From: Octopus vulgaris
Taxonomy: Eukaryota
Direction of reading: 5' to 3'
DNA: 64,000 nucleotides
NCBI GenBank assembly: GCA_951406725.2
Contig: OX597814.1
Coordinates: forward strand, 52,824,001-52,888,000
Both the position numbers and the translations under genes were made by a program. How positions within the stretch are numbered: the first letter of the stretch is position 1; every line of letters begins with the position of its first letter. Below, in pieces: positions 6,209 to 60,992 of this stretch. The notes under the pieces were generated by a model that was not told the origin of the DNA, did no database searches, and worked only from the letters and a program-made list of their open reading frames with translations.

Positions 6209-9197
6209 TCATCATCATCATCGTTTAACGTCCGTTTTCCGCGCTAGCATGGGTTGGACGGTTCAACCGGGATCTGGGAAGCCAGAGCTGCACCAGGCTC
6301 CAGTCTGATCTGGCAGTGTTTCTACAGCTGAATGCCTTTCCTAACGCCAACCACTCCGCGAGTGTAGTGGGTGCTTTTTATGTGCCACCGGCACAGGTGC
6401 CAGGGGAGTCTGGCATCGGCCACGATTGGTTGGTGCTTTTAACGTTCCACCGGCACGGAAGCCAGTCAAGGCGGCGCTGGCATCAGCCATGTTCGGATGG
6501 CGCTTTTTATGTGTCACCGGCACAGAAGCCAGTCGAGGCGGCGCTGGCATCGGCCATGTTCGGATGGTGCTTTTTTATGTGCCACCGGCACAGAAGCCAG
6601 TCAAGGTGGCACTGGCATCGGCCACGTTCGGATGGTGCTTTTTATGTGCCACCAGCACAGGTATCACAACTACTATTTCCATTGATATTTATTTCGATGT
6701 TCATGTACTTGACTCAATAGGTCTCCTCAAGCACAACGGGATGTTCTGGAATCCAAGGTACTTTGAATGGGCAGAGGATATGCGGGACTGGTGCAGGAAG
6801 CAGCCCGGGTCTTTGCAGTCACAGCATGTCTCCAGAGATCTCGGTCCTTCGTCATTGCCTCTGTGAGGTCCAACACTCTGAGGTCATGCTTGACTACCTC
6901 ATCCCATGTCTTCCTGGGTCTACCTCTCCCCCTGATACCTTCAACTGTTTGGGAGCAGCACTTCTTCACACATCTCTCCTCATCCATCCGCAGTACATGA
7001 CCATACCATCACAAGCGTCGCTCTTGCACACCACATCTGATGCTTCTTATGTCCAGCATTTCTTTCAGGGTGCTTACCCTCTGTCGTGCGCGCACACTGA
7101 CATTACACATCCAGCAGATCATGCTAGCTTCATTTCTTTCAAGTTTATGCATGTCCTCTGCAGTCACAGCCCATGTTTCACTACCGTGAAGCATGGCAAT
7201 TCGCACACATGCATCATACAATCTACCTTTCACTCTGAGCGAGAGACCCTTTGTCGCCAATAGGGGTAGGAGCTTTTTAACTTTGCCCAGGCTATTCGTA
7301 TTCTAGTAGTGATACTCTCTGAGCATCCACCTCCACTACTAACTTGGCCACCCAGGTAGCGGAAACTATCAACTACTTCTAGTTTGTCCCCCTGGAGTGT
7401 GATGGAATCTGTTTTCTGAGTATCTGTGGTGTCCATTGTCCCTGTGAATCTGCCACACTTGAAAGCTATCTTATCAGTTAATTTCCCTTTGATGTTGCTG
7501 CACCTCTTATGTGTCCATAGCTTACACTGGGTACATCTTATGAAGTTTCTACCTACGCCTTTTCTACAGATCGAGTGTGTGCTGAGTTCGCCTTTTTGTT
7601 TACTATAACTTTGGTCTTTGCTACATTTACTCTAAGGCCCTTTGATTCTAACCCTTGCTTCCACACCCGAAATTTCTTTTCTAGTTCCAGTAGTGATTCT
7701 GCTATGAGAGCCAGGTCATCAGCATAGAGGAGCTCCCAGAGGCAACCTGTTTTGAATTCCTCTATTATTGCCTGGAGGACTATGTTGAATAAAAGGGCAC
7801 TGAGGGCTGAGCCTTGGTGTACACCTACTTCTACCCGGAATTCTTCACTATATTCATTGCCAATCCTAACCTTGCTGATAGCCTCTCTGTACAGGGCCTG
7901 TACAGCCCTTATTAGCCATTCATCAATCACCAGTTTCCGCATCGACCACCAGATAAGGGATCGGGGGACCCTGTCAAAGGCTTTCTCCAAGTCCACAAAA
8001 GCTATGTAGAGGGGTTTATCTTTAGCTAGGTACTTCTGCAGTTGTCGGACCAGGAATATAGCATCAGTGGTGCTTCTACCCGGCACAAAACCGAACTGCA
8101 TCTCATCTAAGCAAGTTCTCTCCCTAATGAGATGGGTTATGACCCTCTCTGAGACCTTTATCACCTGATCCAACAGTTTAATACCCCTGTAGTTATTTCT
8201 ATCTAGAGCATCACCCTTACCCTTGTAGCAGTTGACTATGGTGCTGCTACGCCAGTCATTGGGTATGACTCCATTATGAACTACCTGGTTTACAATGCGG
8301 GTGACTAGGCCATAGCCCACATAACCAGCTGTTTTAAGCATCTCAGCAGGGATTCCTGATGAGCCGGGGGCTTTACCTGGTTTCATACCCTTAATTGCCT
8401 TAACTACAAGGAAGCTGTTTATTCGGATAGCTGGTCCCTCTACTGGGTCAACATTTGGCAGGCTCTCCTCCTCCCATTCATTCTCCACATTCAGCAGTCT
8501 TTCATAATGGCTTCTCTAAGCCTCTTTCTTTTCACCATCATTAGAAGCAAGTGCCCCATCATCCATGTGGACACATTTCTCTCCTGTAACATCACTATTT
8601 TCTCTCACACACTGTCTAGCAATCCGAAATACCTCAGTTCTTTGGTCCTCACGTCGCTGGACATTGGCAAACTTCTTCTTTTCTGCTACATCTTTGGCTA
8701 TGTATACCTGCCGCCCAGCCTCCCTTTTGGCTACCTGGTACAGTTCCCTGCTACCCCCATCCCTCCAGGCTTTCCAGGCCTGTTTCTTTGCACTAATGGC
8801 TTTGTCTACTTTGTCCACCACCACGTAACTCAGCAAGCTGTCCCGTAGGAATTTCCAGCTACCTTCTATGTCCGACGTCTGGAGCTCCTCCTCCCTCTCA
8901 TCAAATTTCTTGATGAGGATGTCTCTGAATCTCTGACCATGTGAAGGGTTCTTTAGCTTCCAAATGCTTCTTTTCTGGATTGGTCTGTTTCTTGGAATCC
9001 TTCTGGCCTCAAGCCTAAAGTCACTAATGATTAGCCTATGCTGAGGGGTACATTCTTCACCCGGGAGGGTCTTTGTATTTAAGAGCAACCCTGCATCCCG
9101 CTGTCTGGTGAGGATGAAGTCTATTTGGCTAGCGGAGTCTCCTGACTGATAGGTTATAAGGTGGCAGTCAGGTTTCCTGAAGTTAGTGTTGCAGATT
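6207..9197 (-). mobile_element. RTE-clade LINE, 5'-truncated and frameshifted (APE C-terminus, RT, 3'UTR, (GAT)n tail)
   Basis: ORFs 8516-9274, 7553-8488, 7230-7436, 7009-7260 and 6727-6987 carry SQIDFIL, GKAPG, NYRGIKLL, QFGFVPGRSTTDAIF, FVDLEKAFDRV, GVHQGS, LLYADD, FRYLG, LHGSETW and RGRGRPRKTW. Confidence 0.96.
6370..6660. repeat. ~59-bp minisatellite (about 5 units) in the RTE 3'UTR
   Basis: Unit GGTGCTTTTTATGTGCCACCGGCACAGAAGCCAGTCAAGGCGGCGCTGGCATCGGCCATGTTCGGAT is repeated. Confidence 0.9.
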
Positions 9198-17129: not shown

Positions 17130-19000
17130 TCATTAAGAAAAGTGTCATCCTGATGCACTGGTGGGAACATTTTAGTGACATACTAAACTGATCTTCAACA
17201 ATTTCTAGTGAGGTTCTTGAATGTATTGAACAATTTTCAGAAGATACCAATTTAAATCTGCTGCTGAATATGGAGGAGCTGGTAACTACCATCAGCAAGG
17301 CAAAATGCAGGAAACCTCTTGTGTTGACAACATCCCAAGAGAAGTCTATAAGTATGGTGAGAAGGAATTGTGTAATAGACCTCCCCAATTTTTCAGAGAA
17401 TGTTGGTAATGTGGTAACCTACACCAGTAACTCAAGGATTCTCAAACATTTACAAATGAGATGGAGACTGACAGAACTTGAAATTACCAAAGAATTCCCT
17501 TTCTTTTAATTGCATGGAATATTTATGCACAAATTTTGCTCAAGCAGTTGCCAAAATATCCAAATAAATTCTTCCTAAAAGTCAAGATAGAGTTCATGTG
17601 TCTTGAAGCACCAATAATAATGATTTCCATCTTGTAACAAATTCACTTTATACCATGTTCATTGACTTAGTGAAAGCTTTTAACAGAATGTGAAGAAAAG
17701 GTACAGGCATAGCTGTGTGGTAAGAATCTTGCTTCCCGAGCACATGATTCCAGGTTCAGTTCCACTGCGGGGTACCTTGGGCAAATGTCTTCTACTATAG
17801 CCTTGGGCTGACCAAAGCCTTGTGAATGAATTTGGTTGATAGAAACTGAAAGAAGCCCATTGTACATGTATGTATATATATATACATACATACATACATA
17901 CATACATGTATATATATAATATATAAATATATATCTGTGTGTGTGTGTGTGTGTGTTTATGTCTGTGTTTGTTCTCCCATCACCACTTGATAATTGGTGT
18001 TGGTGTGTTTATGTTCCCATAACTTAGCAGTTCAGCAAAAGAGACTGATAGAATAAGTACTAGGCTTAAAAATAAAAGTAAGTCCAGGGGTTGACTTGTT
18101 TGACCAAAACCCTTTAAAGTAGTGCTCCAGCATGGCTGCAGTCAAATGACTGAAACAAGTAAAAGAATAAAAGAATAAAAAAAAGCTCAAAAGATATGGT
18201 TTTCTGGACAAATTTGTGGAAATAGTCAAGCAGTTTTCCATGATGGTATGTCTGCTACAATCTTTTTTAAGAGTGACAACTCAGCTTCCTTTGAGCAAAG
18301 CAGGCTATATACACCTGTATTTGCATTTTCCTGGATGCTGTGCTTGAAAGGATAGCAAGTGAGCTCACAGGTAGTGTGAATATCTACTCAAGAATGGCTG
18401 TGAAGTTGTTGAACCCCTCTTGGATAAGACCTGCTAGGAAGTGCTGTGAGATGTGTATTCATAAATTTCTCTTTACTGAAGATTCAACACCAGCGAGCCA
18501 TATTTTGGAAGATATATACAGAAAATTACACATGAATTTGAATGTACATTGTTAGCTTTTGACCTCTCAATAAATGTAAAAATTACTGTTACTGAAACAA
18601 GAGTGCTGGAGCATAAAATTGTGAATTATCATCAAGACTGAATTATCCTCTGTAAGTGTGATGAAAAGGATCATATATTTGGGCTGTACAATTTTTTTTG
18701 TCTGATGTCAACAGCTTGAATGTAAAGGTGGCTCACCATACATAGTCAGCAGCAGTCATCTTTTGGAAGATCAATGATCAAATGTGGAAGCAACAAAGCA
18801 TAAAACTAAAAAAAATATTGAGTGTACTGAGTTCTAATATTACCTTTTTTGCTGTAATCTACTAAGACCTACACATTGTGTTGTCAACATCAAAAATCTG
18901 ATGAGCTGCCTGTTATGTGAGCTTTGATCTATAATGAACATTTCCTGACAAGACTACATCTCCAACCAGTAAGCCCTGCAGTATGCAAGTATCTTTATCT
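17130..19000 (+). mobile_element. Old BovB-like RTE LINE remnant interrupted by a SINE
   Basis: Broken frames WWEHFSDILN...EELVTTISKAK, KFVEIVKQF-HDGM and FLFTED (decayed FADD). Confidence 0.7.
17704..18190 (+). mobile_element. SINE family A, full structure (head, microsatellite, tail)
   Basis: A/B boxes, internal (TA)/(TG)n and AAAAGAAT tail repeats. Confidence 0.9.
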
Positions 19001-39815: not shown

Positions 39816-42712
39816 CATCATCATCATCGTCGTCGTCGTTGTTTAACGTCTGTTTTCTGTGCTGGCATGGGTTGGACGGTTTGACTGAGAGCTGGCAAGC
39901 CAGAAGGCTGCACCAGGCTCCAATCTGATCTGGCAAAGTTTCTACAGCTGAATGTCCTTCCTAATGCCAACCACTCCGAGAGTGTAGTGGGTGCTTTTTA
40001 TGTATCACAGGCACAGGAGCCAGTCAGGTGGCATTGGCATTGACCACACTCGAATAGTGTTTTTTACCTGCCCCTGTAATGGGTGCCAATCAGGAGGTAC
40101 TGGCATTGGCCATGACAATGAGTTCACTTGACTCAACAGGTCTTCACAAGCACAGTTTATTGCCCAACAATTGAAGGGTACTCTTAAATGGGCTAGTTAT
40201 GCTGCACTGGCATAGGCCAGAGCTACGGTCTCACTTGGCTTGCCGGGTCTTCTCAAGCACAGCATATCTCCAAAGGTCTCAGTCACTTGTCATTGCCTCC
40301 GTGAGGCCCAACGTTCAAAGGTTGACTACACCACCTCATCCCAGGTCTTCCTGGGTCTACCTCTTCCATAGATTCCCTCTACGTCTAGGGTGTGAAAATT
40401 TCACACAACTGTCCTCATCCATATGCAACACATGACCATACCAGCACAGTCGTCTCCCTTGCACACCACATCTGATGCTTCTTATGTCCAACTTTTCTCT
40501 GTTGTGTATGCACACTGACATTACACATCCAGAAGAGCATACTAGCTTCCTTTCTTGCAAGCTTATGCATGTCCTCAGTAGTCACGGCCTATGTCTCACT
40601 GACATGTAGCATGGCTGTTCACACACTTGCGTCATACATTCTACCTTTTACTCAGAGTGAGAGGCTCTTTGTCACCAGCAGAGGTAGGAGCTTTCTGAAC
40701 TTTGCCCAGGCTATTCTTATTCTAGCAGCTACACTCTCAGAGCATCCACCCCTACTGCTGACTTGGTCACCAAAGTAACAGAAGCTATCAACTAGTTCTA
40801 GATTTTCCCCCTGGCATGTAATGGAAGCTGTTTTCTGCACATTTTCAGTGTTTATTGCTCCTGAGCATTTGCCACACACACAAAACTATCTTCCCAGTTA
40901 GCCTTCCTTTGATATTGCTACATTTCTTATGTGTCCATAGCTTACACCGGATACATCTTATGGCGTTCCTACCTACACCTTTTCTACAGATTGAGCAGGG
41001 CTATCTACCTGAAGGGATTTGTGATTTGTCTGCTTTCCTACTTATTAAGACTTTGGTTTTTGCTGGATTGACTCTAAGGCCTTTTGATTCTAGACCTTGC
41101 TTCCACACCTGAAACTTTTCTAGTTCTGATAGTGACCTAGCTATTAGAGCAAAGTCATCAGCATAGAGGAGCTCCCAGGGGCATCCTATCTTGAATTCCT
41201 CTGTTATAGCCTGGAGGACTATGATGAATAAGATGGGCTGAAGACTGATCCTTGGTGGGCCCCTACCCCTACCTGGAATTCTTCACTATAATTGTTGCCA
41301 ACCCTCACCTTACTGGTAGCATCCCTGTACATGGCTTGTACAGCTCTCACTAACAACTCATCTATCCCTAGTTTCCGCATTCACCACCAGATAAGTGATT
41401 GGGTGACTCTATCAAAGGCTTTCTCCATATCAACGGAAGCCAGGTACAGAGGTTTATCTTTGGTTAGGTATTTCTCCTGTAGCTGTCTCACCAGAAATAC
41501 AGCATCAGTGGTGCTTTTCCCTCGCACAAACCCAAACTGCATCTTTTCTAAACTAACTCTCTCCCTAATTAGTTGGGCTATGACCCTCTTCTTGACTTTC
41601 ATTACCTGATCCAACTACTTGATACCTGTGTAATTATTCATATCTAATGCATCACCTTCACCTTTGTAGCAGTTGACTATGATGCTGTTTCACCAGTGAT
41701 TGGGTATGACTCCTTCATGTATCACCTGATTGACTATATGGGTGACAAGACTATAGCCGACACCGCCCGATATCTTAAGCATCTCTGTGGTGATTTCTGA
41801 TGGGCCAGAGGTTTTTCCCTGTCTTCATACCCTTAATTGCTTTATCTACCAAGGTACTGTCAATTCGGATAGCTGGTCACTCAGTTGGGTCAATGTTCAG
41901 TAGACTCTCTTTCTCCCATTCATTCTCTTCATTTAGCAATCTTTCATATCAGCATCTCCAAGTATCTTTCTTTGCAGCCTCATTAGTTGCAAGTGAGCCG
42001 TCATTCATGCAGACACATTTCTTTCCTATGACATCATGATTCTCTCTCACACACTGTCTTGCAATACAAAACACTTCAAGTCTTTGGTCCTCACGATGCA
42101 GAACATTGGCAAATTTTTTCTTGTCTGCTTCCCTCTGACTAAGTAAACCTGTCTCCTAGCTTCCCATCTGGCAATCTGATACAATTACCTGCTACCACTG
42201 TTCTTCCAGTCCTTCCATGCCTGTTTCTTTTCCCTAATGGCCCTGTCTGTTCCACCACCATGTTACCTTGGGTTGAGAGGGGCCTTTGCACCATCCACAG
42301 ATCTGGTCAGTAGCCCTCAACAGTTGTCTTCCACATCATGTGATGCTATATCCTCCTCTATTTCATCAAAAGCTTCAAGTAATACGTCTCTAAATCTCTG
42401 TCTATTCACAGGATCCTTAAGCTTTCAGACCCTTCTTCTCCATGCTGGTCATCTTCTGGGCATCCATTTAGCCCTGAACCTGAAGTCACTAACTACTAAT
42501 CTATTTTGTGCGGCGCATTCTTCATCTGGGAAGATTTTGGCCTTTATAAGTAGCTATCTTTCCCATTTCCTGGTGAGGATATAGTCAAATTGACTAGTGT
42601 GTCCATCAAACTGGTAGGTGAATAGGTGACTGGCTGGTTTCCTGAAGTTAGTATTACAAACCATAAGATCATTTGCCTCACAGAACTCCAGTAGCCTGAT
42701 TCCCTCCTCATT
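39816..42712 (-). mobile_element. RTE-clade LINE, 5'-truncated and degenerate (same family as 6207)
   Basis: NEEGIRLLEFCEAND (APE), MQFGFVRGKSTTDAVF, DMEKAFDRV, YADD at ~41155-41166, ARIRIAWAKF; same (GAT)n 3' tail. Confidence 0.95.
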
Positions 42713-43170
42713 GTGGGAACCAAATTTCAACTGTGCCTCGGAAAATCTAATCTATGCCACTACATGCTTAGGGTGTGGTAATCATTATATTGGCCAAACA
42801 AGAATATCACTCTGTCGAAGAACCACTCTCCACAAAGAACAAATCTGCCACCCACAATACAGACAGATACAGGTCAGTGAACACATAGAAAGGTATACTA
42901 GGAACCTTAATCCTAATTTCCTAATTTTCCCCTTTTATCAATGTTCACAGAAAATCTCAGTACAACAAAGAATGACTAAAGAGGCAACTTTCATCAATAA
43001 ATATCTTCCACAACTCAATATGAACACATGACTTAATACAGAACACTACTAACCTTTGAATTAATACCACCCATACATCCCATACACCATTCACATTACA
43101 GATCTATATCTACCTTAATTGCACCAAATCCAGAACTACTTACCTCCCTTACACATAATCTTTTTACTCA
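42713..43170 (+). mobile_element. PLE fragment: GIY-YIG endonuclease C-terminus
   Basis: FNCASENLIYATTCLGCGNHYIGQTRISLCRRTTLH...SEH...RMTKEATFINKYLPQLN. Confidence 0.88.
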
Positions 43171-50760: not shown

Positions 50761-50912
50761 CATGTACAAAGACATGCACATGCATAAAAACATACATACA
50801 TGCATGAATACAAACATACAAATACATATACATACATACAAACACACTTACATATACTGTCAGTCACAATTAATGACATCTAATTTCTTTTCTTTTTGGT
50901 TTTATATTGCAT

Positions 50913-51482
50913 ATTCCCAACTCAACTTACTTTCTTCTTCAATTTCAACTCCCGATCGATGCCCGCAGCAAGTTCTTAAAAATTTATCTTACTATTTTAT
51001 TCGTTGTTACTACGTTTATTCATACATTGTTACGAAAATTTAACCTTTTAGGCTACTTTCAAGCCTTCGCCATAACTTGATTTATCTTTCCTATCTCTCT
51101 CTCTCTACAAAATTTAACCTTAGGCTACCTCACTTCCCATCTTTCCGCCATTGGCGGTCTTTTTCTTTTTCCCCCTCTTCTTCTTCTTATGCTAAAACTT
51201 GAAAATCGCCATTACCATTACGATTCTGCAATTTAAATTCCCAACTCAACTTACTTTCTTCTTCAATTTCAACTCCCGATCGATGCCCGCAGCAAGTTCT
51301 TAAAAATTTATCTTACTATTTTATTCGTTGTTACTACGTTTATTCATACATTGTTACGAAAATTTAACCTTTTAGGCTACTTTCAAGCCTTCGCCATAAC
51401 TTGATTTATCTTTCCTATCTCTCTCTCTCTACAAAATTTAACCTTAGGCTACCTCACTTCCCATCTTTCCGCCATTGGCGGT
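50913..51482. repeat. Near-identical ~245-bp direct repeat (50913-51158, 51237-51482)
   Basis: ATTCCCAACTCAACTTAC...TTCCGCCATTGGCGGT occurs twice, separated by a ~78-bp spacer. Confidence 0.95.
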
Positions 51483-52224: not shown

Positions 52225-52487
52225 TTGCCCCCGTGCCGCTGACACGTTAAAATGCTCGAACCGATCGTGACGATGCCGGACCCTCCGGCCCCTGTGCAGG
52301 TGGCACGTAAAAAGCACCCAATCCACTCACGGAGTGGTTGGCGTTAGGAAGGGCATCCAGCCGTAGAAACTCTGCCAGATTCAGACTGGAGCCTGGTGCG
52401 GCCCCTGGCTTCCCAGACCCGGTCAAACCGTCCAACCTGTGCTAGCGCGGAAAGCGGACGTTAAACGATGATGATGATGATGATGAT
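52225..52487 (+). mobile_element. Young (CpG-intact) RTE 3'-tail copy
   Basis: GGTTGGCGTTAGGAAGGGCATCCAGCCG...CGGACGTTAAACGATGATGATG. Confidence 0.88.
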
Positions 52488-52608
52488 ACCCGCCTTCATT
52501 ATTTTATAACTTTCACATTACCATTTTGCTGATTCAGCCATTGATTCATATGGTAAATACTTATGTACTGATAGTTGGGATTTAACCACACTATCCAGCG
52601 ATAGAGTA

Positions 52609-52660
52609 GTCATTACTGATGAGCTTTTGATTCAAAGTGAAACTAAACTAGTATGATGAT
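52609..52660 (+). ncRNA. Type I hammerhead ribozyme, canonical core
   Basis: GTCATTA-CTGATGA-GCTTT(TGATTC)AAAGT-GAAA-CTA(AAC)TAG-TA-TGATGAT. Stems I, II and III all pair; GUA triplet; predicted cut after 52653. Confidence 0.85.
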
Positions 52661-52854
52661 CTCGCTCGCTGTGGGGTGGTTACCTCCCCTGCTATTACAT
52701 AGACATGTGCTTCTTTGTGGCCCTGAATTTTTCTTGTTTGGTTTTATTTACTTATAGCCGCCTTTCTTATAACTTATAATGTCTCAATAAACAAAGTTTT
52801 TTTTTTGTTTTTCCAATTAGTGAATAGATGTAAAGATTTTTCTTACTTCCTACT

Positions 52855-53250
52855 TGCCCAAAGTGCCACACAGGGGGACTGTACCCAGAACCACATGGTC
52901 CTGGGTTCAGTCCAACTGCGTGGTACCTTGAGCAAGTGTCTTCTACTATAGCCTTGGGTTGACCAAAGCCTTGTCAGTGGATTTGGTAGATGGAAACTGA
53001 AAGAAGCCCATTGTATAAATATATATATATGTATGTGTTTGTGTGTCTGTGTTTGTTCTCCACCATCGCTTAAATACCGATGTTAGTGTGTTTACATCCC
53101 CGTAACTTGGCGGTTCAGCACAAGAGACTGATAGAATAAGTACTAGGTTTACAAAGAATAAGTCCTGGGGTCAATATGTTTGACTATAGGTAGTGCTCCA
53201 GCATGGCTGCAGTCAAATGACTGAAACAAGTAAAAGAAAAAAGAATAAAA
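52855..53250 (+). mobile_element. SINE family A with inverted 5' segment
   Basis: 52855-52895 is the reverse complement of 52896-52937; body and tail follow. Confidence 0.85.
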
Positions 53251-54269
53251 GAATATATATATATAGTAGATGAAACGGTGCATCGTCTAAGAAATTACAG
53301 GGTAAATGTTTTTTAATTTTCTCCTGGTTTACGGAATTGACGTTATTTTGCGGTTAAAGCTTTTTGGCTGTTATTTCTAGTGGGTGAATGGCCTATTATG
53401 GCCGTTCCTTGATTGTGATGTTGAACTTAAAATGGTTTATGACTATTTAATTTTTTCCCACTAGGCCGCTGGTGGCAAAAGAATTCTACAAAATTTTTTT
53501 TGCCACCCTATATTGATTAAATATATATATATATATATAAGAAAAAAAGTTTGAAAATGCAATTTAAACGATGTTTATTTACTTAACCGGTTTCACTCTT
53601 TGGTAAAAGATTGTCAAAAGTAACATTAAAAGTATCATTGAATAATATGGGTTCAAAAAAGTTTTTTTACATAATTGTCACATTGGATATTATGCATTCA
53701 AAAAAGTTTTTTACATAATTGTCACATTGGATATTATGAATTCAAAAATGTTTTTTTATACAAAATTGTCACATTACATGTATAAATATAGTGTTTGGTA
53801 ACAGAGAAGTTCAATAGTGTGATGAGAATATTTGGAAAAATTGGTAGAAAAGGATAAAACAAATATATTATTGGAAATTTGGTTGCGTTAATTATTGGTT
53901 GTCGCAAATTGTCACATTACATGTATATATATACAGTCTTTGGTATATATATACAATCTTTTGACAGCAAAAATTAAAATGGATTTTTTATACATCTCAG
54001 AATATTTTAAGTTGAAGGCGAGAATATGTTGTTACTGACCTGTTTGTTTTGGCAGAAAGGTTGAATTGAGAGAAAAAAGGTTGTACCCAGTGTGGTGTAT
54101 ACTTCCCCTTCAAGCATCAATGGTTTTGGGGTTATCAGGAGGTTAGTATGCCTGCTGGTCAAGCAGCGTCTGTTTGTCACACACATATATACACACACAC
54201 ACAAGGAATGCAGAAGCTTACACTATTATATTATTATATACAACACTATTATATACAACATTATATACA

Positions 54270-54826
54270 CTATTATATACAACAACATTCCACAACTAAA
54301 TCAAGACCCACGCCTGAAAAAAATACTGGCAGCTCATAAAATAATAAAAAGTAAGAGACAACCTAAATCCCTAAAAAACCTCCTCACCAACGCAAAATTA
54401 CACAACACAAACCCACCGCCCACCATCAAAAAATGTGGTCGCCCCAACTGCAAGACCTGCATCCACCTCATTGAGGGATCGTCGTACAAGTTCCACTCGG
54501 GACACACATTCATCATAAAAAATAATTTCACGTGCGCATCAAAAAATTTACTTTACGTCATAAGGTGTGAAGGATGCCACGAAGACTACATAGGGCAAAC
54601 GAGCCTTACCCTCAGAGAAAGAATGACAGTTCACCGACAACTGAGGGACCCCTCCACAAGACAGATACCACTAAGTGGACACTTAGACCTTTGTGCACAC
54701 AATAAGTCCCCCAAATTCTTAGTCTTCCCACTATACCAATGCTCGGACAACACCACAGACCAAACACGAATAAATAAGGAAAGTAATCTTATTCAAAAAT
54801 ACAGACCACAACTAAACATACTCTAA
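54270..54826 (+). pseudogene. PLE linker zinc finger plus GIY-YIG endonuclease (RT missing)
   Basis: KRQPKSLKNLL...KCGRPNCKTCIH...FTCASKNLLYVIRCEGCHEDYIGQTSLTLRERMTVH...LSGH...RINKESNLIQKYRPQLN*. Confidence 0.9.

Positions 54827-56296: not shown

Positions 56297-56330
<34 letters not shown>
54930..56330. repeat. 1.4-kb degenerate (TG/TA)n tract inside the PLE 3' region
   Basis: Directly visible. Confidence 0.95.
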
Positions 56331-56333
<3 letters not shown>

Positions 56334-57011
56334 GTGTGACAAACAGACGCTGCTTGACCAGCAGGCATACTAACCTCCTGATAACCCCAAAACCATTGAT
56401 GCTTGAAGGGGAAGTATACACCACACTGGGTACAACCTTTTTTCTCTCAATTCAACCTTTCTGCTAAAACAAACAGGTCAGTAACAACATATTCTCTGCT
56501 TCAACTTAAAATATTCTGAGATGTATAAAAATTCCATTTTAATTTTTGCTGTCAAAAGATTGTATATATATACCAAAGACTGTATATATATACATGTAAT
56601 GTGACAATTTGCGACAACCAATAATTAACACAACCAAATTTCCAATAATATATTTGTTTTATCCTTTTCTGCCAATTTTTCCAAATATTCTCATCACACT
56701 ATTGAACTTCTCTGTTACCAAACACTATATTTATACATGTAATGTGACAATTTTGTATAAAAAAACATTTTTGAATTCATAATATCCAATGTGACAATTA
56801 TGTAAAAAACTTTTTTGAATGCATAATATTCAATGTGACAATTATGTAAAAAACTTTTTTGAACCCATATTATTCAATGATACTTTTAATGTTACTTTTG
56901 ACAATCTTTTACCAAAGAGTGAAACCGGTTAAGTAAATAAACATCGTTTAAATTGCATTTTCAAACCTTTTTTCTTATATAATCCCACTCGTGCGATACC
57001 CCACAACTCAA

Positions 57012-57049
<38 letters not shown>

Positions 57050-57051
<2 letters not shown>

Positions 57052-58440
57052 AGCTGAGTGGCCCATTATTGTTGGGTAATTTTCACAATAGAATGCTTTT
57101 ATTTCAATTATTTTATTCCTTGTGAGATCATGTCTTCTATGACAGGTGTTTTGATCAGACAGATATCTACATTATTAGGATCAACTTATAATGTCTCAAT
57201 AAATGAAGTTTTTTTGTTTTTCCATTTAGTGAATAGAGGTAAAGATTTTTCTTACTTCCTACTCTTCAGCATGTAACTTGAAGCTGACAATGGGTGAAGA
57301 CAGGGCTCTTCAAGGTGTAAACCAGCAACTAGAAATGTTTGCCCTTCTGATTTGTTGGTAGTAATGGCAAAACTAAGACTTACTGGAAATTGAAGTCATT
57401 TGAACTGGAATGCGACACTGTCTGCTGAGTCTGTGCTATGGAGGCTTTTGTGTGCTCATCATCTAATTGATGCAGCCTGTGCTCAGGTGTCTCCTGAGAC
57501 TATGTAATGGAGGCTCATAGCCTCATATTCTGGTACCAGTAATATGCAGGTGTTAATTTAATTGGCTATTCATATCTCTTGTAAAAATTGCCTTTGTGTC
57601 TAATCAAAAGAAATCATTATTTATCTGTTAATTTAAAAATTCCATTGTTCTTAGATACTTAAGAACCATGCTGTATAATCTAAAGCAACAAATTTTGATG
57701 TTTAGCAATTTGAGCTGATTCCAATATGGTTTAACCCTTTTCATGTCAACTCACTTGAAATCACCTTTGAATCTATGATACAAACTTCCTAATTCAAAGA
57801 GATCTTAATTAAAACCTTCTATCAAAATTTTATATTTATGTCCCAAACACCAACTTAGTGACAGAATTTGTTTCACTAAATTCTTCAATGCTTTCAAAAT
57901 TAATTGAAACAAAGGCAGTATTTTCAACAGAAATAAGATAACAAAAGAGTTAAGGGGTCATTTACTTATTTGATTTAATGACTTTGGCTAGAAAACTTGC
58001 CATTCACAAACAGTGCTAGATTCTAATAGTTGGTCTGTTCTGATCTAGATTCTAAATTTCTCACGACAGCATGCCTTTTTTGGTGCGAGGTAACAAGTAT
58101 CTTATTATGCACTTTGATACTTTATAAAATTTCTAGATCTTTATCCATTACTATGCTGCTGGTAAAAATATCTGTTAATTATATATGTACCTTCTTTTTA
58201 TAGTAAACTGTTATGTAGTGAAAATCTTGTTACTTACTATGGTGGTAATAGTCTATCTATTTCTACCTTTTACCCACATGCATACACACTCTCTCTCTCC
58301 TCTTAATGTATTTCTCTCTCAACAACAACCTCTTGTTATAGTGAAAGTCTTTTTTTAGCTGTGTTGCATTGGTTTGAAAGACTTGCGTTTTAGATTACCA
58401 TGTTTTTAATCAAAACTTGTTAGTTACTATGATGACAACA

Positions 58441-60030: not shown

Positions 60031-60992
60031 AATGCACTTGCTAAGTTCCCCCGAGTGAGCAATACTGGCAGCGGGGCTACCACTGCGGATTTTTATAGCG
60101 GGTTGGCAGAGCACATGTCCGACGACATCCTGGGAGAGACTCTAGGCTTTGATAGGGACCAGCTTGTCAACCTGTTTGGAAGAACATTCGGGCCAAGGTA
60201 TCTGGATAACTTCCAGAAATCCCTGGCCTGGTTGTGCTACCTATTGGTCTTGCCAGTTTGAGAGAGGTTGTCAAGGCATGGTGTTGGTGCCCCAGCCACA
60301 TGCTCGAGGTGCAGGCATGTCAGTGAAACTGTCATGCACATCTTCGTACATTGTGAGGAACTGAGGGGATTGATAACCTATGTTGAACAACTGGTGTCAG
60401 AAACAGAAAGAGTATGGTTATCGATTGAGTCTATCATCAAGATTGTATCGCCTTCCTCCTGTAACAAGGAAAAGGAGGCATCATTTTTTTGCGTAGTAGC
60501 CGTATTGAATGAGATAGTATGGGTGGCACGTAGAAGAGGAATTGAGACAGGCAACTTTATTTCCGGACACGGGTTGGTTAGTTTTTTTAACTACCACCTG
60601 TCCAGGAAGATCAGTCTGGAGAAGAGATGCCTGTCTCAAAGAATGTTTGAGAAAAGATGGACAAATGTCATAAGGAAGTTGAGAGTGAATAGGGCCTCAC
60701 TAGTGTAGCCGGTCTGAACGGAAAAGAAGGAAAAAAAATGGAAGGAAAAGAGAAACGAAAAATTAATTATAAAAAGGAAAAAAGAAAAAACTAGCAGGTT
60801 GAGCACAAACCCGGAAAAAACTATATATTATTATTTAATTTTTAATTCATTTTAATTCATTGATTCACCATTTCGATTTCATTATACTTGATGTTTACTC
60901 TGACTAACTAATGTATAATCCCAGTCCCTAAATGCTTTTGTTTTGTTCTTGTGCTGTACCCTCTATGTTAACCATGTATTGGCAATAAAGAA
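60031..60992 (+). mobile_element. Tx1/L1-group LINE 3' end with CCHC zinc knuckle
   Basis: LDNFQKSLAWLCY...LPV*ERLSRHG...CSRCRHVSETVMHIFVHC...IVWVAR...FEKRW; 3'UTR ends at AATAAAG. Confidence 0.85.

Follow-up and report, generated by a model that had tools for sequence, protein, structure and literature searches.

The hammerhead-like sequence at 52609-52660 of this Octopus vulgaris DNA raises the question of whether it is a compact ribozyme that stands and folds by itself, as a first-pass annotation had described it, or a part of a larger element. We addressed this question by analyzing the motif, its relatives in public sequencing runs and its surroundings in the whole stretch of 64,000 nucleotides, hereafter called the window.

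A Complete Type I Hammerhead Motif

Direct reading of the sequence identified a type I hammerhead motif with a complete core and three stems on the plus strand, composed of the following parts:

52609..52660 (+), the whole type I hammerhead motif
52609-52615 / 52654-52660 (+), stem I, 7 bp including two G-U pairs
52616-52622 (+), core sequence CUGAUGA
52623-52627 / 52634-52638 (+), stem II, 5 bp with a G-U first pair and a 6-nt loop (stem-loop II, 52623..52638)
52639-52642 (+), core sequence GAAA
52642..52652 (+), helix III and loop 3, A52642-U52652 plus CUA/UAG (1+3 bp) with a 3-nt loop
52651-52653 (+), triplet GUA
52653..52654 (+), predicted cleavage site after A52653, from its place in the hammerhead consensus

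All core nucleotides, the 7-bp stem I and the 5-bp stem II can be read directly in the sequence, as annotated. With its CUGANGA/GAAA/NUH core, three helices and open helix I, the motif belongs to the type I hammerheads. The 10.1-11.1 pair, which is highly conserved in hammerheads (PMC4209133), is G-U instead of G-C in this copy.

A hammerhead descriptor run over both strands of the 64-kb window returned one motif at each of three sets of stem thresholds (7/5/3, 6/4/2 and 4/3/1). Among block-wise dinucleotide shuffles of the window, 0/300, 0/300 and 12/300 held a hammerhead at these thresholds, respectively, while the bare core pattern occurred at chance level (4 observed vs 3.1 expected in the window). 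The 52609-52660 motif is far above chance, and its absence from the shuffled windows at the two stricter settings bears out the view that it is a genuine type I hammerhead. It is the sole complete hammerhead found on either strand of the window, with no second complete copy. A minus-strand candidate at 14062-14026 was rejected because it lacks C3 and has stems of 2 bp.

The annotation had looked to Rfam Hammerhead_1 for confirmation, which did not come: no Rfam family matched the 52609-52660 motif at gathering score, and the best match was Hammerhead_3 (RF00008, clan CL00010), scoring 23.8 bits where the gathering score is 48.5. Hammerhead_1 was absent among the Rfam matches listed, where overlapping matches of the same clan are hidden. 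The motif resembles the clan in that core and stem II align, whereas its topology is that of type I and not of type III.

A 2-nt bulge (52607-52608), at 7 bp from the core in the predicted structure, marks a place where a contact between loop 1 and the 6-nt loop 2 could form. Loop 2 has a single A close to its 3' end (52634), and this A is variable in 2 + 2 family contigs of the two public runs with most matches (X6 and X8, respectively; see below).

The Motif Lies within a 268-nt Unit of a Many-Copy Repeat

The first-pass annotation overlooked that the hammerhead is part of a 268-nt unit that belongs to a repeat family. The features of this unit are:

52492..52759 (+), the 268-nt unit itself (37% GC), one monomer of a head-to-tail repeat with many copies
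52492..52561 (+), portion of the unit that is shared most widely, with many more contig matches than at the ribozyme
52562..52701 (+), predicted rod of ~140 nt that extends stem I past the 2-nt bulge
52725..52759 (+), 3' segment that precedes the unit start in other copies (head-to-tail junction in loose contig ends)
52760..52775 (+), terminal redundancy, where a short and diverged restart of the unit joins a second repeat via 5 shared bases
50848..50914 (+), decayed fragment like the 3' part of the unit (0/500 shuffles)

The longest open reading frame wholly inside 52492-52759 spans 48 amino acids from stop to stop. The stretch 52478-52880 was present, whole or in part, in 11 public runs from 7 studies (6 when a possible source study is left out) carrying four organism labels. 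Family contigs were obtained by aligning 4 of the 24 listed public runs to 52478-52880 at 80% likeness, which yielded 406 (X6), 244 (X8), 9 and 7 contigs; these counts take in neighboring repeats at 52771-52880, and depth is not copy number. Most contigs were less than 95% identical to the window (329/406 in X6 and 206/244 in X8). Run X10 is RNA only by our guess, and its 7 contigs (four on 52490-52558, one on 52643-52691, one on a neighboring repeat and one from the locus itself, identical over 52664-52814) were left out of the evidence. Across contigs of the four runs, the unit shows the multiple copies that characterize non-LTR retrozymes.

Several lines of evidence bear on the head-to-tail arrangement. 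Among the loose ends listed (24 of 268), all nine that precede 52486-52502 resemble 52725-52759 by eye, and they stem from all four runs; one loose end that was compared with the window matched solely 52725-52747, with 2 mismatches (0/100 shuffles). A single contig (X6 record 10) covers 52501-52724. The alignment of the restart (52486-52520 vs 52754-52789) is weak alone, as 9/500 shuffles scored as high. It is from the loose ends, this contig and the restart at 52760-52775 together that the 268-nt circle closes.

A tandem array was not observed: of the 21 joints, 15 are listed and none of these leads backward, and a contig (X8 record 17) extends 764 bases upstream of the unit without a further piece among the pieces listed. 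Among the joints listed, 13 link the left to the right part of the unit across unaligned sequence. Matches were also unevenly distributed along the unit, with 87 (X6) and 65 (X8) contigs carrying the variant at 52533 compared with 21 and 12 at 52646. Since 52492-52561 is matched in excess and the 13 joints connect left and right parts, the ribozyme region seems to be where the subfamilies diverge most.

Searches of viral and metagenome contigs returned 0 matches to the family motifs, and no target-site duplication was identified at the locus. The decayed fragment at 50848-50914 was not found by an nhmmer search of the window. It is followed by a 246-bp block that is present in 100% identical duplicates 324 bp apart (50913-51158 and 51237-51482), between which 51183-51240 weakly matches the 5' part of the unit (2/500 shuffles). 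By its sequence, the region 50848-51482 could represent an older head-to-tail junction that was split by an insertion.

Variation of the Hammerhead among Relatives

Nine variants inside 52609-52660 were found among the 40 of 117 variant positions listed. None of these nine affected the core, three lay in loops, five leave pairing in stems I and II possible (52613 T>C with 52656 A>G, 52614 T>C, 52655 G>A and 52638 T>C) and one, at 52634, breaks the outer pair of stem II. The changes at 52613 and 52656 suggest compensation, in a table that does not link columns within a contig. The window copy carries U-G at 52614-52655, where many relatives have a Watson-Crick pair. Similarly, the 10.1-11.1 pair (52638) is G-C in 50% of the aligned depth in X6 (11 contigs) and 30% in X8 (4 contigs). 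One loose end from run X9 derives from a relative with a changed G12.

The Locus Is Shared between Organisms and Lies in Mobile-Element Debris

The locus itself is genuine: two contigs of organism B match it without a difference over 52531-52846, and organism C carries it with 8 differences and 5 gaps over 52486-52864 (379 bases). Because the locus is common to organism C with these differences, the insertion is not recent.

The window represents animal DNA rich in microsatellites and retroelement debris. The motif sits between the (GAT)n tail of a repeat ending at 52487, which we take to be SINE-like, and another repeat, which begins at 52771 and has a further copy at 57183. The window yielded no host gene; the open reading frame 17192-17506, considered as such, was discarded, having no relatives among longer proteins and looking, by eye, like a degraded fragment of a LINE.

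Examples of single domesticated hammerheads are known (PMC6155905), and the intact core, together with the identity of the locus (52531-52846) in organism B and its similarity in organism C, could indicate that the host retained this one copy as an active ribozyme processing a through-running transcript, like the amniote intronic hammerheads. We regard this as very improbable, given that no host gene accompanies the motif in the window, that its surroundings are mobile-element debris and that the ~2% divergence in organism C fits selection and recent common ancestry alike.

The Hammerhead Caps a Predicted Rod

The motif had been described as compact, a description that does not hold: stem I is predicted to run on past the bulge into the ~140-nt rod at 52562-52701. 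The predicted rod has a z-score of -2.6 (1/200 shuffles), and 6/412 GC-matched 140-nt windows of the same contig fold equally well. When the 268-nt unit was folded as a circle, a rod with both ends paired was predicted (z -1.9, 9/200 shuffles). In these models, the hammerhead is not a stand-alone RNA and caps the predicted rod within the unit. Relatives do not confirm the structure of the outer rod: among the 22 outer-rod variants listed, 5 keep the predicted pair, 5 are at unpaired positions and 12 break a pair when taken singly, and three of the 22 (52572, 52692 and 52693) fit a shifted register pairing 52570-52574 with 52689-52693.

The predicted minimum was a different fold from the hammerhead, which lies 1.2-1.9 kcal/mol higher and, under strict constraints, accounts for 0.1-0.2% of the ensemble. 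Because folding programs omit core and tertiary contacts, this low share neither supports nor excludes activity. For the monomer, we estimate the chances of measurable cleavage at 10 mM Mg2+ to be about even and consider efficient cleavage at 1 mM Mg2+ doubtful.

These observations bear on whether the unit is an old satellite-like or dispersed repeat in which all hammerheads no longer work and the motif survives by descent only. The divergence of the relatives, most of them below 95% identity, is compatible with such decay, as are the weakened pairs of the window copy, the unfavorable hammerhead fold and an insertion old enough to be common to organism C. The core, however, is unchanged in the nine motif variants listed and five of the six stem changes are compatible with pairing, while the weight of the fold energies is reduced by what the programs leave out. 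Moreover, a dead repeat bears on present activity and not on origin. We therefore find this explanation rather improbable.

A Likely Leftover Monomer of a Non-LTR Retrozyme Family

We propose, with a probability of roughly two in three, that the hammerhead lies in a solo 268-base copy of a many-copy repeat that is a leftover monomer of a non-LTR retrozyme family. Membership of the unit in the retrozymes is likely. The motif, its many diverged relatives and the lack of core changes among the nine motif variants listed support this reading, as do the head-to-tail junction, the size and composition of the unit, its predicted rod fold and the Penelope-type remnants in the same DNA. Metazoan non-LTR retrozymes are described as 170-400 nt in length with less than 50% GC (Cervera and de la Pena 2020, PMC7229834), and the noncoding unit of 268 nt with 37% GC falls within these limits. 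Compared with the families in that study and in Li, Clavereau and Pollet 2026 (bioRxiv 10.64898/2026.07.22.740005), the unit shares the type I hammerhead, the noncoding low-GC sequence, many copies, a head-to-tail junction, a self-paired predicted fold, the occurrence of solo monomers and Penelope-type remnants in the same DNA. It differs in being a single unit, hence not "active" by the 2026 definition, and in its helix III (1+3 bp here, 1-2 bp in retrozymes).

By analogy with the retrozymes of coral, mussel and axolotl (PMC7229834), the hammerheads of multi-unit transcripts would each cleave, giving unit-length RNAs, which would likely be circularized by a host ligase. The circles would then likely be copied back into the genome, probably by enzymes of Penelope-like elements (PMC7229834). 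The lone locus cannot release a circle or unit alone because it holds one ribozyme only; its sense transcript would cut once, probably slowly. Solo monomers are reported to be common in retrozyme families and may be dead ends (bioRxiv 10.64898/2026.07.22.740005). Against the retrozyme reading stand the missing array and target-site duplication, the unconfirmed outer rod, the lack in the window of any sequence connection from the unit to a Penelope terminal repeat, the relative with a changed G12 and the mostly inactive Xenopus dimers, of which 1/9 predicted retrozyme dimers cleaved in vitro (bioRxiv 10.64898/2026.07.22.740005).

Remnants of the C-terminal GIY-YIG endonuclease were found at 54278-54823 and 42630-43028 (48% identical over 100 aa), and their motifs suggest that they are Penelope-type. 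Neither is joined to the 268-nt unit or to a recognizable hammerhead in the window. These remnants, 1.5 kb and 9.5 kb from the unit, raise the alternative that the unit derives from an autonomous Penelope-like element as its solo pseudo-LTR (3' end fragment), in which case the shared segments would result from partial-tandem insertions. Type I hammerheads occur in Penelope pLTRs, frequently with a palindromic helix III (PMC4209133), two opposite-strand joints (one contig each) recall inverted Penelope insertions (PMC8557442), and the joints listed lack a tandem array. Yet the 3' segment leads directly back to the unit start with no open reading frame between them, the unit follows neither GIY-YIG remnant, and the short open reading frames just upstream of it show no endonuclease remnant evident by eye. 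In the window, no reverse transcriptase plus GIY-YIG reading frame is flanked by the repeat.

The structure of the ribozyme points in the same direction. Minimal Penelope hammerheads share with it the type I topology, a palindromic helix III (in the relatives) and dispersed single copies; they differ in their short helix I (4-5 bp vs 7 bp and extended here), long helix II (7-8 vs 5 bp) and extra base between A9 and G10.1, which is absent here (PMC4209133), and no linked open reading frame was seen at this locus. With a helix III longer than a 1-2 bp stub as well, the motif falls outside the minimal Penelope class. We therefore consider a solo pseudo-LTR unlikely. Since retrozymes have been proposed to derive from pLTRs (bioRxiv 10.64898/2026.07.22.740005), the two readings shade into each other.

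Helix III Leaves Both Monomer and Dimer Open

The annotation had predicted that the ribozyme folds as a monomer, on the basis of a helix III that is longer than the usual stub. The latter part is correct, as 1-2 bp are typical of animal type I and Penelope motifs (PMC4209133). A monomer fold is also unsurprising because type I hammerheads active as monomers are normal in invertebrate retrozymes (PMC7229834). The energies weaken the prediction: the helix III hairpin by itself was calculated at +0.8 kcal/mol, and the dimeric hammerhead of the 52609-52660 copy scored better (-11.5 kcal/mol including duplex initiation) than two monomers (-7.2, 2 x -3.6). In the models, the longer helix III leaves the dimer option open, and the family keeps both monomer and dimer.

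The window copy and its relatives differ at the center of this helix. Position 52646 is A in the window copy, where the palindrome at 52642-52652 is imperfect and has no G-C pairs at the center of the dimer helix, which leaves the dimer with 4+4 bp flanking a 3x3 loop. Of the aligned depth, 74% (X6, 21 contigs) and 77% (X8, 12 contigs) have G at the same position. By inspection, a G here turns 52642-52652 into an odd palindrome that is also a 5-base direct repeat, and allows 10 dimer-helix pairs around one mismatch. A 10-bp dimer helix of this kind is known for the Aedes aegypti repeat hammerhead (PMC3088659, Fig. S8 legend), in which stem III and loop III form the helix as they could in the G52646 relatives; the window copy, with A at 52646 and its 3x3 loop, differs from it. 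Dimer-cleaving Penelope hammerheads are the subject of work by Lunse et al. that is cited in PMC6765202. Within the family, helix III could hence act in two ways, through a weak hairpin in the monomer or through a 10-bp helix in a dimer of neighboring units.

A more far-reaching scenario can be drawn from these features. Helix III would have arisen by a 5-base microduplication of a palindromic stub, switching between monomer and dimer cleavage, in an active cephalopod retrozyme family that makes viroid-like, rod-shaped RNA circles, with 52492-52561, the rod end opposite the ribozyme, serving as a signal for the Penelope reverse transcriptase. We offer this as a speculation with a small chance of being right; if true, 52492-52561 would provide a testable handle on how animal retrozymes are mobilized.

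Implications for Cephalopod Retrozymes

Hammerhead motifs number thousands in animal genomes, and a single locus matters little by itself. In the giant squid genome, 235 Rfam Hammerhead_1 matches have been reported (PMC6962438). We found no cephalopod retrozyme described in the mainly open-access literature searched; the main text of bioRxiv 10.64898/2026.07.22.740005 names three insects and one coral as its only invertebrates, and its supplements and those of PMC7229834 may list some. If the family is confirmed, it would extend retrozymes to a group for which that literature describes none, and offer a natural helix III for the comparison of monomer and dimer as well as a conserved nonribozyme segment that may be a mobilization signal.

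Other Repeats in the Window

The second many-copy repeat (52771-52854 and 57183-57263) shows no significant homology to the 268-nt unit (108 and 237 of 500 shuffles). The 5 bases that it shares with the unit restart could reflect a template switch. In some other copies, the sequence past 52845 runs into a hammerhead-5'-core-like sequence (X8 and X10 loose ends), and the repeat may be another ribozyme-bearing family, judging from these ends. A possible decayed hammerhead-like remnant without intact core bases was noted by eye at 57294-57345, on the downstream side of the second repeat; the segment that contains it begins directly behind a (TA)n run (57018-57048).

A strong hairpin at 52856-52933 marks the start of a SINE-like repeat and appears to be an inverted duplication of the repeat's own 5' part; inverted truncated copies are typical of Penelope-type insertions. 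Inverted repeats of ~670 bp (53534-54203 and 56313-56981), 98-99% complementary and containing 44-bp subrepeats, form a foldback-type element whose interior includes the GIY-YIG remnant (54278-54823) as well as a long microsatellite block. Further, a remnant of a LINE reverse transcriptase (RVT_1, E 5e-29) lies on the minus strand at 7553-8515, and a zf-RVT remnant lies on the plus strand at 60262-60708.
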